Assembly (NCBI GenBank): GCA_965284455.1
Contig: OZ260086.1
Coordinates: 1,728,686-1,792,685 of the forward strand
Source: Sphingobacteriaceae bacterium
Lineage (GTDB): Bacteria > Bacteroidota > Bacteroidia > Sphingobacteriales > Sphingobacteriaceae
Direction: 5' to 3'
DNA: 64,000 nt
Shown: one piece after another, positions 45,432 to 48,712 of the stretch
Position numbering within the stretch: the first letter of the stretch is position 1
How the letters are laid out: every line of letters begins with the position of its first letter
Program-made: the position numbers and the translations under genes
Notes under the pieces: generated by a model
Databases searched by the model: none
What the model was told of the DNA's origin: nothing
What the model saw: the letters and a program-made list of their open reading frames with translations, nothing else

Positions 45432-46730
45432 TTACGACAATCCTTTTTTGTTTTTATAAGTCATTTTGGCTTTGGTACCTGCGCTGTAGTTGTAGTTCTT
45501 CAGGTTACTGGCTTTCTTTTCGTGAAAAGCTGCTCCACGTTCATTGTTGTCCGCTTCCTCCTCACCTTTCTTTTTCTTGGCTTTGCTGGTCGCATCAACA
45601 ATTTTTAAATCTTCAGGCAATTCCATTATTTCTAATTTCTGTCCAATGGCCAGCTCTATCTTTCTTACTTCTATAAGTTCGATATCTGTTGAAAAAGTAA
45701 TCGCTACAACCTCTTCATCGCCATGCTTAACAATACGCTGAATTAAGGTTTCTTTTTGCTCGGGCAATTCTAAATGTATAATAAAAGGAATGCCCTGAAT
45801 ATCCAGCTCGCCCAGGTTTTCATTGGCAACAATCAAAACCCTGGCCGCAGCATTTTCCTTAAAATCCTCAATGTTATCATAGCCCTTATCATCAAAAAAT
45901 AAAGAGCGATAGATCGAAATTTCACCTTCCTTACTATGGTTAAAGTTTTTATAAACCGTTTGTGCAGTTAAACGCGTATTCACAAAAACTACTACTTTAT
46001 CAAAAACCTCTTCATCATTTAAGAGCAAGGTTAACAAATTAAGTTTTGTTCTGAAATTAGGTACCTGATATAACATCTGCTGGTAAACCTCAGCCTGCTT
46101 TTCGCCTATTTCATCCACCTCAATAGTTGCTGCCGAATCTTTCATAAAAGGAGCAATCATGTGGTTTAGTTTTTCGTGCAATACCTCTGTAAACACCACG
46201 TGCTGAGATTTGTAAGCACTGTTGGCCAGTTCGACAACCGGTAATTGCAAGCCTCTTTTAACAATGAGCTCGGCATTATCTACAATGAATAATTGTATTT
46301 TATTGGTATTTAGCGCCAGTTTTAAATACAATGCACGGGCGCGGTCAGGAACAGCCACAATGATATCGCAACCATCCGTAATTTCGTTCATCTGTGTTTC
46401 TACAGCACCACGGCTATCAATTCCCAAAATCCTGAAAGTACTGTTGCGGTTCAATAATTTAAACTGCTCCAGAACATGATCTACATGCTCAATATCCGGC
46501 ACTAAAATCAATGCTCTTGGCGCTTCTTCAAAGGCATATTTCAATTTCATTAGTGTAGCTAAAACATAGGTAGTTGTTTTTCCCGAACCTTCCGGTCCTA
46601 CTGCTATAACATCCTGGCCACCTAAAATTCTCGACATTGTTCTGGCCTGGATTTCTTTTGGAGTTAAGAATCCTGCATCAGTCATGGCCGCTACAAGTGG
46701 TTTGCTAAGTTTTAATTTATCTAAAGACAC
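45432..46730 (-). CDS. DEAD-box helicase-like protein with degenerate catalytic motifs
   Basis: Q-motif GFLTPKEIQ, GSGKT and VFVNT are retained. DEAD is replaced by DNAE, SAT by TEV, and HRIGR by QRIVK. GTG start. Confidence 0.85.
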   Translation of the reverse strand: MSLDKLKLSKPLVAAMTDAGFLTPKEIQARTMSRILGGQDVIAVGPEGSGKTTTYVLATLMKLKYAFEEAPRALILVPDIEHVDHVLEQFKLLNRNSTFRILGIDSRGAVETQMNEITDGCDIIVAVPDRARALYLKLALNTNKIQLFIVDNAELIVKRGLQLPVVELANSAYKSQHVVFTEVLHEKLNHMIAPFMKDSAATIEVDEIGEKQAEVYQQMLYQVPNFRTKLNLLTLLLNDEEVFDKVVVFVNTRLTAQTVYKNFNHSKEGEISIYRSLFFDDKGYDNIEDFKENAAARVLIVANENLGELDIQGIPFIIHLELPEQKETLIQRIVKHGDEEVVAITFSTDIELIEVRKIELAIGQKLEIMELPEDLKIVDATSKAKKKKGEEEADNNERGAAFHEKKASNLKNYNYSAGTKAKMTYKNKKGLS

Positions 46731-47007
46731 AATTACTATTTTAATGATTTGAAATGCAAATATCCTTAAAATAATTAGCTTTTAGAGAAAAGCTTTGCAA
46801 ATCAATGCTACACATAGGGGTACAACTGTATTGTGAGGGCTTAATTCCGGATTAGCATAAGTATTATTTTATGCCTTTTCATTGTATTAAGTAATTTCAG
46901 ACAGTGTAAGCGGGATTAACTAAAAAATTAATTAACTAATTATCAATAGATTAAAAATTAATTCAAAATAAACACTACTAAATCTATAGATATTATATAC
47001 TTATTTC

Positions 47008-47015
47008 TATATTTG
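47008..47015 (+). promoter_or_regulatory. Bacteroidota -7 promoter box upstream of the small ORF/tRNA-like element
   Basis: TATATTTG matches TAnnTTTG, 54 nt before the ATG at 47070. Confidence 0.5.
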
Positions 47016-47069
47016 CTGAACATTAATCATTAACTAAAATACGGTGTTAAACAATTAAACGCAAAAACA

Positions 47070-47231
47070 ATGTCAATCTATTTTCAGTTTCCGGCCATTG
47101 ATGAGTATCCAAATTTAGCCCATCCGCTAAAAACAGAACCTAAACATGCACAGCAAAACATGGATGAAGATAGTTTTTCACAGGAACAGCATACTGAGCT
47201 AAAAGATTTTTTAGCCTTAAAACCTGTTTAA
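47070..47231 (+). CDS. Small hypothetical protein, 53 aa (below the ORF-track cutoff)
   Basis: ATG at 47070 after an A-rich tract: MSIYFQFPAIDEYPNLAHPLKTEPKHAQQNMDEDSFSQEQHTELKDFLALKPV*. Confidence 0.45.
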   Translation: MSIYFQFPAIDEYPNLAHPLKTEPKHAQQNMDEDSFSQEQHTELKDFLALKPV

Positions 47232-47241
47232 CTTATTACAT

Positions 47242-47311
47242 GGCCAGTTGACCGATTGGAAGGTTAGAGTTTCATAAACTTTTTACGATGGTTCGAATCC
47301 ATTACTAGGCC
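47242..47311 (+). ncRNA. tRNA-like element (pseudo-tRNA, CAU anticodon)
   Basis: Cloverleaf: GGCCAGT-TG-ACC GATTGGAA GGT-T-AGAGT TTCATAA ACTTT-TTAC-GATGG TTCGAAT CCATT-ACTAGGC-C. Canonical T-loop and anticodon loop, defective acceptor stem, no CCA. Confidence 0.7.
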
Positions 47312-47396
47312 GCTAAGTGTATTTCATAGCACTTTATACTGATCCTGCTCAGGTCAGTTAAGATTTGGTTATCTTATATTTGTTTTGTTGTTAGCA

Positions 47397-47421
47397 AAGG
47401 CTACCCGCGATGGGTAGCCTT
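47397..47421. terminator. Perfect 10-bp hairpin
   Basis: AAGGCTACCC-GCGAT-GGGTAGCCTT followed by AACTTTTT. Confidence 0.6.
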
Positions 47422-47598
47422 AACTTTTTAAGGCTACTATGGCACAAGCAGATCGAAGAATCTCCTGTTCGTTAAAAAACCTTGTTTGCTGGTACAAATT
47501 CCTAATTTTCATTTTTCTAAAAACTTTTTATTCCGTTTGTGGTTATTTATATAATTCACATTATACTAATCTTTTACAGATTAATTTGTTTGGTTTAA

Positions 47599-47628
47599 AA
47601 AAGGGATTTATGGATATAAATCCCTTTT
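47599..47628. terminator. Perfect 12-bp hairpin upstream of the S66 peptidase gene
   Basis: AAAAGGGATTTA-TGGATA-TAAATCCCTTTT followed by CTTTT. Confidence 0.55.
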
Positions 47629-47689
47629 CTTTTATGCCAGAATTTTAAATCCTATATTTAGCCATATCAATTTCACTACCCTATTTTAG

Positions 47690-48712
47690 ATGAACAGAAA
47701 ATATTTCCTTTCTTCATTTATTGCAGCCACCACCGTAATTCCGGCATTTAAAACTTTAGCTAATACTATCGAAAGTGAAAGTTCATCGTTTAAAATACCA
47801 CCTTATTTAAAAGCTGGGGATACCATCGGGATCACCAGCCCTGCCGGATACATTACTTTGGAGCAAATCCAACCATCGGTTTTACAAATGCAAAGTTGGG
47901 GCTTTACCATCAAAGTGGGCGATACGATTGGTAAGCGCGATTTTACTTACGGTGGCACAGACGAAGAAAGGTTAGCTGATTTTCAGCAGATGTTGAACGA
48001 CCCCAATATTAAGGCTATTATGTGTGCCCGCGGTGGTTACGGCTTTGTACGGATTATCGATCAGCTCGATTTTTCGGCCTTTAAAAGAACCCCAAAATGG
48101 ATTATTGGCTTTAGCGACATAACCGTTATTCATTGTCATCTGGCCAAAAATTTTGGCATTGCCTCTATTCATTCAAAAATGTGCAATAGTTTCCCCGATG
48201 ATTGGGCCAAAGCAGAACCGATACAGATTGAAACCATTTTATCGATCAAGAATGCTTTAACCGGCGAACAAATGGGCTACACCTCCCCTTTAAATAGCAA
48301 TAACCGTTTTGGAAAAACCGATGGGATTTTAATCGGCGGAAACCTGAGCATTATTGAAACACTGGCAGGTAGCAACTCTGATTTAGACACCAAAAATAAA
48401 ATACTATTTATTGAAGATACCGGCGAATACCTCTACAGTATCGACAGAATGTTATGGAATTTAAAACGCAGCGGCAAGCTTAAAAACCTGAAAGGTCTTA
48501 TTGTAGGTGGTTTTAAGGTTAAACCCGATGATGCAGGCGAAGAATTTGGCAAAACCATTTACGATATTGTTCTCGAAAAGGTAAAGGAATACGCCTACCC
48601 TGTTGTCTTCGATTTCCCGGTTGGACACCAACGCAATAATTTTGCGTTAAAATGCGGTGCTAACCATACCTTTATCGTTAATGAAAGTGGTGCAACGCTG
48701 AGAAGCATTTAA
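47690..48712 (+). CDS. S66 family LD-carboxypeptidase (muramoyltetrapeptide)
   Basis: ARGGYG, GFSDIT (Ser), IEDTGE (Glu) and PVGH (His); Tat-like leader NRKYFL. Confidence 0.9.
   Translation: MNRKYFLSSFIAATTVIPAFKTLANTIESESSSFKIPPYLKAGDTIGITSPAGYITLEQIQPSVLQMQSWGFTIKVGDTIGKRDFTYGGTDEERLADFQQMLNDPNIKAIMCARGGYGFVRIIDQLDFSAFKRTPKWIIGFSDITVIHCHLAKNFGIASIHSKMCNSFPDDWAKAEPIQIETILSIKNALTGEQMGYTSPLNSNNRFGKTDGILIGGNLSIIETLAGSNSDLDTKNKILFIEDTGEYLYSIDRMLWNLKRSGKLKNLKGLIVGGFKVKPDDAGEEFGKTIYDIVLEKVKEYAYPVVFDFPVGHQRNNFALKCGANHTFIVNESGATLRSI

Follow-up and report, generated by a model that had tools for sequence, protein, structure and literature searches.

A transfer RNA (tRNA)-shaped element at 47242-47312 of the forward strand of a 64,000-nt stretch of Sphingobacteriaceae DNA (the window, from contig OZ260086.1) is neither a decoder tRNA nor the debris of one. 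Its cloverleaf, including a one-base bulge in the 3′ strand of the acceptor stem, has been maintained by compensatory evolution. To judge from the layout around it, the mimic forms the middle of a conserved, Pedobacter-specific transcript, which would begin with a small open reading frame (sORF) and end with a GU-rich RNA and a terminator. The role tentatively preferred for it is that of a punctuation element. The genome is one complete contig of 6.18 Mb, of which the window covers 1728686-1792685 (the element stands at 1775927), and it carries 55 tRNA genes recognised by ARAGORN and a transfer-messenger RNA (tmRNA) gene.

Structure and Conservation of the Element

The cloverleaf features listed in the initial annotation (U8, the GG of the D arm, a 5-bp anticodon stem, the TTCATAA loop, a 4-nt variable loop and the T arm) are all present at the expected positions (Table 1). 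The acceptor stem had been described as carrying either two mismatches or a bulge, and only the second description holds: seven pairs form around a bulged A47307, and among 70 distinct homologues this register pairs 98.2% of cells, compared to 71.5% without the bulge. The 3′ strand is 8 nt long and the 5′ strand 7 nt, and the uninterrupted 7-bp acceptor of a decoder tRNA is absent. A minimum free energy (MFE) fold of the window sequence alone gives the bulged acceptor, the T arm, three hairpins on the 3′ side and the terminator (z = -3.55).

Base pairing was counted on an alignment (A2) of 70 distinct sequences spanning the mimic through to the terminator, using an explicit structure of 46 base pairs, with 500 shuffles and slid 3′ partners as controls. 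Paired bases occupied 95.8% of cells, and compensatory changes (on both sides) were found in 20 of the 46 pairs, with covariation in all four tRNA arms. None of the shuffles matched the observed values on any measure, and pairing fell to 28-51% when the 3′ partners were slid out of register. These counts bear out the earlier proposal of a structured tRNA mimic under selection.

The bulge is kept in acceptor stems of differing sequence (GGCCAGU/ACU-A-GGCC, GGUAGGU/GCC-U-UACC, AGCAGGU/ACCU-G-GCU), and persists where the acceptor pairs have changed at five of the seven positions. The deep-branching version (GGUUGGG/CCC-A-AACC) is also bulged, and the model alignment flags no non-standard pair in it. 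Constraint is strongest in the elbow (D-loop GG and T-loop UUCGAAU) and in the acceptor: U8 and the D-loop GG never vary, and 69 of the 70 sequences share the same T loop. In the anticodon loop, 57 sequences have UUCAUAA; the others carry UAU, AAA, UUA or CGU, or have a loop of 4, 5 or 9 nt. A CAU loop that does not change, in the midst of a changing stem and variable loop, is not neutral. The discriminator position can be G, A or U.

The Rfam tRNA model (RF00005) matches the element with 40.0 bits (gathering score 29; E-value 5.5e-5 for the whole window and 8.6e-7 in a local search), which is well above chance, and this is the sole Rfam match in the window. The score is lower than that of every genuine tRNA of the same genome (46.9-75.7 bits), and ARAGORN makes no tRNA call in the 64 kb, in line with the low or pseudo score that had been foreseen. 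For more than 20 of the orthologous loci tested, the same program reports a tRNA-Met; spurious tRNA-Met genes may thus have entered genome annotations, which should be read with caution. No CCA is encoded after the element, which is followed by GCT instead. The initial annotation was right about this absence, but took it as a sign that the element could not be charged; it is uninformative, since a CCA is likewise missing from 41 of the 55 tRNA genes that ARAGORN recognises in this genome.

About 100 Pedobacter loci contain the tRNA-shaped element, with P. agri and P. ginsenosidimutans among the carriers. BLAST searches with the element were positive for 15 of the 36 genomes covered within the genus; 24 other genera of the class gave nothing. 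A covariance model (R1), made from the element together with its orthologues, scores the element at 93.5 bits, and in a search across the family, scores of 80-95 bits were found only in Pedobacter (6 of 8 sampled genomes, counting that of the window). The matches in other genera reach about 60-66 bits, separated by a gap from those of Pedobacter, and are taken to be ordinary tRNA-Cys genes. The element occurs in dozens of species with 5-20% divergence in the flanking proteins, and its order and position are kept in many Pedobacter genomes, contrary to the lack of conservation that the initial annotation associated with random decay.

Relationship to Canonical tRNAs

The anticodon differs among orthologues, and the element is therefore not a decoder tRNA. 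The genome has no decoding need for it, carrying CAU tRNAs elsewhere: two copies for fMet, the elongator Met tRNA and an Ile2-type tRNA. A decayed tRNA-Met or tRNA-Ile2 gene, as had been suggested, does not fit either, both classes being intact elsewhere while the nearest canonical relatives are of another kind. After the element itself, the best R1 matches in the genome are two tRNA-Cys genes (56.7 and 45.9 bits), and plain alignment likewise ranks tRNA-Cys first, with about 70% global identity. A tRNA-Cys-like gene is therefore its most likely ancestor, rather than a tRNA-Met or tRNA-Ile2.

The two tRNA-Cys genes (at 2774680 and 760644) have in common with the element a GNCCGAGUGG-type D arm, a GAGGU/ACCUU-type anticodon stem, a 4-nt variable loop and the T loop. 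They differ from it in the anticodon loop (CUGCAAA, compared to UUCAUAA in the element) and in the acceptor stem, which in the element is unrelated and bulged.

One of these genes (C1:760644-760715(+)) belongs to a second, odd type of Pedobacter tRNA-Cys (AGTCATG...CATGACG-T), seen also at L056, L057, L011:1673-1744 and L016. Positions 1/72 of this type are A/G, or alternatively, it can be read as having a bulged G and an A1-U73 pair. The same scaffold bears a CAU loop in one genome (G017), and in two others (G102, G128) it is followed by the GU-rich module described below.

The Conserved, Putative Transcription Unit

The unit is made up, in this order, of a promoter-like motif, a 53-aa sORF, a gap of 0-10 nt, the mimic, three hairpins, a GU-rich stretch and a terminator. 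The promoter-like motif (TATATTTG) is found only 5′ of the sORF, and the gap between sORF and mimic is too small for a promoter; it appears from this layout that the sORF, the mimic and the downstream RNA are co-transcribed. Divergent units (L124, L011, L063/L064) have the motif in the corresponding position. From the stop codon of the sORF to the first base of the mimic the distance is 0-10 nt in the 36 loci measured, and 10 nt in the window.

The sORF is intact in about 100 loci, with strongly conserved N-terminal (MSIYFQYPAIDEYP) and C-terminal ends. The entropies at the three codon positions of the 14 N-terminal codons (0.13/0.17/1.02) indicate that it is protein-coding and under selection at the protein level. 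Its product matches no Pfam family, and all named matches are from Pedobacter or Sphingobacteriaceae and labelled as hypothetical proteins. At two divergent loci the reading frame runs into the mimic: at L064 (genome G082; 1218-1493) it continues to the UAA of the anticodon loop, and at L124 (P. jejuensis; 1501-1760) the usual stop is lost and the frame extends to 85 codons.

Units at other places and in divergent genomes keep the same association. In G004, within a different neighbourhood, an sORF (MPIYLEFP...) is followed by a bulged mimic with the loop CUCAUAA, a GU-rich stretch, and then a Cys-type tRNA. The divergent genomes G135 and G082 have an MSVYFEYP... sORF followed by the GGUUGGG/CCC-A-AACC mimic, with anticodons GAU and CAU, respectively. 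In G009 and G005, the sORF and mimic have both been lost and the hairpins, GU-rich stretch and terminator are intact. In P. mendelii, a frameshift interrupts the sORF, the bulge, G53 and CAU have all been lost from the mimic, and the tail is altered.

Table 1. Features of the unit and its surroundings (window positions, except for the last row).
Feature	Position	Strand	Description
Helicase gene, DEAD-box-like	45432-46730	-	GSGKT present, DNAE replaces DEAD (translation)
Promoter-like motif, TATATTTG	47008-47015	+	about 55 nt 5′ of sORF start; fits the Bacteroidota -7 consensus TAnnTTTG
sORF, 53 aa	47070-47231	+	acidic; MSIYFQ[YF]P.I.EYP ... L.DYL.LK..
Acceptor stem	47242-48 (GGCCAGT) / 47304-11 (ACTAGGCC)	+	7 bp, A47307 bulged
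U8	47249	+	from sequence
D arm	47251-47264	+	GG at 47258-59; from sequence
Anticodon arm	47266-82	+	5-bp stem AGAGT/ACTTT; loop TTCATAA at 47271-77, CAT at 47273-75
Variable loop	47283-86	+	4 nt, TTAC
T arm	47287-47303	+	GATGG-TTCGAAT-CCATT; canonical UUCGAAU loop
Discriminator-like G	47312	+
Hairpin H1 (AAGTG/CACTT)	47315-47334	+	loop with second conserved CAU (UUUCAUAG; consensus UCUCAUAG); A2, pair counts, MFE fold
Hairpin H2	47338-47358	+	conserved loop CUGCUCA; 4 of 6 pairs change on both sides; MFE fold
Hairpin H3 (AAGAU-UUGGUU-AUCUU)	47360-47375	+	one compensatory pair, A-U to U-A in 3 sequences; MFE fold
GU-rich stretch, single-stranded, UAUAUUUGUUUUGUUGUUAGC	47375-47395	+	columns invariant in 70 distinct sequences
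Intrinsic terminator	47396-47429	+	10-11-bp G+C-rich stem, then AACTTTTT; terminator scan; covarying, 99.7% paired
LD-carboxypeptidase gene	47690-48712		ordinary chromosomal neighbour
Further GU-rich copies with terminator	C1:397394-397450(+); 1381475-1381420(-)		loci L143-L162

The GU-Rich Tail and Its Copies

The part downstream of the mimic, in which an invariant AUAUUUGUUUUGUUGUUA stretch stands between the three hairpins and the terminator, is better conserved than the mimic itself, and was detected by BLAST in 45 of 121 genomes of the genus. The core of the GU-rich stretch (ATATTTGTTTTGTTR) is far commoner in the genus than a control with the pattern reversed. Two further copies occur in the genome of the window, each with a terminator directly after it. 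One is 23 nt 3′ of cobA (uroporphyrin-III methyltransferase), at the end of a cluster with cysH, cysD and cysN; the other is 26 nt 3′ of hom and ends the metY-metX-hom operon, which is headed by a SAM-I (S-adenosylmethionine) riboswitch (72.9 bits, ~1385566-1385676(-)). The first copy lies just 3′ of cobA in 19 of 20 other Pedobacter genomes sampled, its core unchanged and the spacer and terminator sequences different. In G102 and G128, the GU-rich module comes directly after a Cys-type tRNA gene.

The tail is thus a reusable module, ended by a terminator and functional independently of the mimic. Since copies are found after cobA, after hom, after the mimic and after Cys-type tRNAs, it is tied to sulfur amino-acid genes and to tRNA-shaped genes with Cys or Met anticodons. 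By sequence and position, the copies at the 3′ ends of cobA and hom are candidate small RNAs (sRNAs) of sulfur amino-acid metabolism, derived from 3′ untranslated regions (3′UTRs).

The GU-rich stretch begins with UAUAUUUG (47375-47382), which is identical both to TAnnTTTG and to the -7-like box at 47008-47015; this may be coincidence, promoter mimicry or a DNA-level signal. The stretch, with TATATTTG at its start, is unlikely to be a DNA promoter, as there is no -33 element at the usual spacing, it runs into a terminator, and the genes downstream are not consistent at the three sites.

Possible Roles of the Mimic

Of the three functions suggested in the initial annotation (decoy for anticodon nucleases, substrate for RNase P and RNase Z processing, or ligand of an RNA-repair or quality-control protein), the processing substrate is the best fit to the context. 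It is plausible, and tentatively preferred here, that the mimic separates the messenger RNA (mRNA) of the sORF from a riboregulator. The enzymes that process tRNA ends would recognise the module, with RNase P cutting at 47241/47242 and RNase Z after about 47312, and the cuts would release a GU-rich RNA, about 120 nt long and with its 5′ end set by the cut, for which a riboregulator role is inferred. A terminating ribosome covers roughly 10 nt past the stop codon, and because of the 0-10-nt spacing, one that stops at the end of the sORF would have to open the 5′ strand of the acceptor; translation is therefore probably coupled to the folding and processing of the mimic. The bulge and the variable discriminator would probably exclude the excised mimic from translation, and the mostly conserved CAU loop suggests an extra contact with a reader of the methionine anticodon.

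The constrained elbow and acceptor, together with the tolerance of 4-, 5- and 9-nt anticodon loops, fit enzymes that read the elbow and acceptor. The disappearance of the mimic along with the sORF, while the tail persists (G009, G005), also counts for punctuation, as does the recurrence of the tail behind other tRNA-shaped genes (G102, G128). In G004, where the mimic and a Cys-type tRNA bracket a GU-rich stretch, cuts of the tRNA type could produce both ends of that stretch. The genome encodes an RNase Z homologue (1604602-1605489), scoring 283.5 bits, just under the curated cut-off of 292.95, and the scarcity of encoded CCA ends among its tRNA genes fits as well.

Several observations weigh against the punctuation role. 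A pure processing handle could dispense with the anticodon arm and its CAU, yet UUCAUAA is held in 57 of the 70 sequences despite turnover of its stem, and CAU is also kept in the deep-branching G004 and G082. The bulge in the 3′ strand could equally block cleavage by RNase P and RNase Z. The predicted RNase P cut, 0-10 nt past the stop codon, leaves the sORF mRNA with almost no 3′UTR, which looks costly unless that is itself regulatory. When targets of the GU-rich stretch were sought with RNAduplex among 5,485 start regions, the best energies did not surpass those of five shuffled seeds.

An alternative is a tRNA-Met mimic that acts as a ligand or sensor, either alone or as the 5′ domain of an RNA of about 190 nt. 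It would be bound, and perhaps charged, by a CAU reader (methionyl-tRNA synthetase (MetRS), TilS or the enzymes of N6-threonylcarbamoyladenosine (t6A) synthesis), which would make the level or activity of the GU-rich tail depend on methionine or sulfur status. This is possible, if on the unlikely side. It is favoured by the fixed UUCAUAA loop in the face of stem turnover, by a CAU that survives in deep-branching units whose acceptor differs at five of seven pairs, by the second conserved CAU in the H1 loop, by the same tail at the ends of the cysH-cysD-cysN-cobA and SAM-I-headed metY-metX-hom operons, and by the nature of MetRS identity, which rests mainly on the CAU anticodon. Against this, 13 of the 70 sequences have lost CAU (to UAU, AAA, UUA, CGU or loops of 4, 5 or 9 nt) and kept the rest of the element, the discriminator can be G, A or U, no metG, tilS or related gene adjoins the unit, and G009 and G005 keep the tail without the mimic. 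A cis-acting element for the sORF is improbable: the mimic would cap the 3′ end of the sORF mRNA against exonucleases or act as a translation-gated switch, with the bulge blocking RNase P. The sORF and mimic are always adjacent (0-10 nt), are co-inherited in new genomic contexts and decay or vanish together, and in G082 the reading frame itself enters the mimic and ends at the UAA of the anticodon loop. However, such a role explains neither the tRNA-shaped genes that precede the same tail without any sORF (G102, G128) nor the conserved CAU, and a simple hairpin would suffice to protect a 3′ end. A composite is also doubtful. In it, termination on the sORF would decide the folding of the mimic, the folded mimic would be acted on by RNase P/Z and by a CAU reader (such as MetRS), and all of these events would determine the output of the GU-rich riboregulator; the 3′ ends of the met and cys operons would supply the same seed. 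If true, this translation-gated methionine switch would be an undescribed coupling of tRNA-like sensing to sulfur amino-acid metabolism in Bacteroidota.

The two remaining explanations take the element for a tRNA, working or dead. That it is a chargeable, non-canonical fourth CAU tRNA, serving translation or donating aminoacyl groups outside the ribosome and given its CCA post-transcriptionally, is very unlikely. It has a full cloverleaf with U8, A14, G18G19, U33 and a canonical T loop, ARAGORN accepts many orthologues as tRNA-Met, and most real tRNA genes here lack an encoded CCA as well; but the anticodon varies and some loops are not of 7 nt, the acceptor bulge is conserved while the discriminator is not, tRNAs for fMet, Met and Ile2 exist elsewhere, and the element is embedded 0-10 nt past a coding sequence. 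A decayed tRNA gene or the functionless remnant of an attachment site has next to no probability. The rejection of the element by ARAGORN in this genome, and a tRNA score under that of every genuine tRNA, are what a relic would give, but compensatory changes in all arms, unequalled in 500 shuffles, and retention across dozens of species with diverged flanking proteins are not. The old integration site that had been offered as an alternative was likewise ruled out: there are no integrase or mobile genes within about 10 kb of the element, where the neighbours are housekeeping genes, and its 22-nt 3′ half occurs only once in the window, even when 3 mismatches are allowed. Nor do relatives carry an intact canonical tRNA in this place, a case the initial annotation had raised: no canonical tRNA, T-arm motif or sORF was found within 1.5 kb of the helicase gene in 14 Pedobacter genomes without the unit.

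Genomic Neighbourhood

In the window, the unit is flanked by a DEAD-box-like helicase gene on the opposite strand and an LD-carboxypeptidase gene, both ordinary chromosomal genes (Table 1). The helicase-like gene is a core Pedobacter gene (55-96% identity), present with or without the adjoining unit. A functional link with the unit is not supported, the gene being found in all 14 of the tested genomes that lack the unit (55-86% identity), and the G004 unit being in another neighbourhood.

A 69-codon open reading frame downstream of the terminator (47439-47648) was rejected as a coding sequence, as the matches in relatives are split across frames and only its 3′ part is conserved. It overlaps a second conserved non-coding stretch (47517-47635(+)) with a terminator-like hairpin (47599-47628) followed by CTTTT; this stretch may be a further small RNA, or else a leader for the LD-carboxypeptidase gene.

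Comparison with Known Systems

To our knowledge, tRNA mimics that do not decode are rare in bacteria, the main examples being tmRNA, YrlA and viral-type tRNA-like structures. Among the papers searched, none joined 'tRNA-like' and Pedobacter, and broader queries gave nothing on the element.

Like tmRNA, whose 5′ end is matured by RNase P, the element is a tRNA mimic joined to another functional RNA. The tmRNA gene of this genome is elsewhere (2333515-2333879), however, and the element differs from it in having a contiguous tRNA part with an anticodon arm, and in lacking G3-U70, a tag reading frame and an encoded CCA.

YrlA, a Y RNA (RF02553), is also a bacterial non-coding RNA with a non-decoding, tRNA-like domain, and the same genome encodes Rsr and RtcB. 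A YrlA-type role is not supported, and identity with YrlA was rejected: RF02553 has no match at E<=1 over 46800-47800, and a separate rsr-YrlA-rtcB locus lies 2.1 Mb from the element (rsr, 3904856-3906373; rtcB, 3907483-3908907). At the same search setting, the spacer between rsr and rtcB gives RF02553 scores of 42.3, 38.1 and 24.6 bits, which are sub-threshold (cut-off 69). Unlike YrlA, the element is not beside rsr and is linked to an sORF; its 5′ flank is coding, its 3′ flank is its own hairpins (H1-H3) and terminator, and there is no end-to-end Ro-binding helix.

The rsr (TROVE/Ro60)-rtcB locus (C1:3904856-3908907) contains a repeat array of about 1.1 kb after rsr (L142, 3906300-3907500) with T-arm-like GCAGGTTCGAATCCTGC, as well as a 46.5-bit tRNA-like element missed by ARAGORN. 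The array looks like a multi-copy Y-RNA locus.

The GU-rich copies after cobA and hom resemble the enterobacterial sRNAs that derive from 3′UTRs (DapZ, CpxQ, SdhX type), in that a conserved single-stranded stretch lies directly 5′ of an operon terminator. They differ in that one copy follows a tRNA mimic and not the 3′ end of an mRNA, and in the absence of targets found by RNAduplex. We know of no Hfq-type sRNA partner or chaperone in the Bacteroidota, and of no T-boxes in this phylum. The GU-rich module common to the 3′ ends of methionine and sulfate-assimilation operons is unusual, and is a possible entry point to post-transcriptional control of sulfur amino acids in Bacteroidota.

The nearest known kinds would be the tRNA-like punctuation elements: plant mitochondrial t-elements, MALAT1-mascRNA, the tRNA-microRNA units of murine gammaherpesvirus 68 (MHV68 tRNA-miRNA units), plant dicistrons of tRNA and small nucleolar RNA (tRNA-snoRNA) and, as the nearest bacterial case, E. 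coli 3′ETS-leuZ (external transcribed spacer). What the element would have in common with them is a non-decoding tRNA fold with conserved elbow and acceptor, set within a longer transcript beside a functional mRNA or sRNA, with the flanking RNA obtaining its end from RNase P or RNase Z. The Pedobacter element differs in being bacterial, confined to one genus, and placed between an sORF (0-10 nt) and a terminator-ended GU-rich RNA, and in its conserved 3′-strand acceptor bulge and mostly conserved CAU; 3′ETS-leuZ, for its part, follows genuine functional tRNAs. Two of these features are unusual in themselves, namely a bulge kept through near-complete turnover of the stem sequence and a fixed place between a translated sORF and a highly conserved GU-rich RNA. 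The element offers a concrete system in which punctuation of the tRNA type could be tested for a bacterial transcript joining an mRNA to an sRNA.

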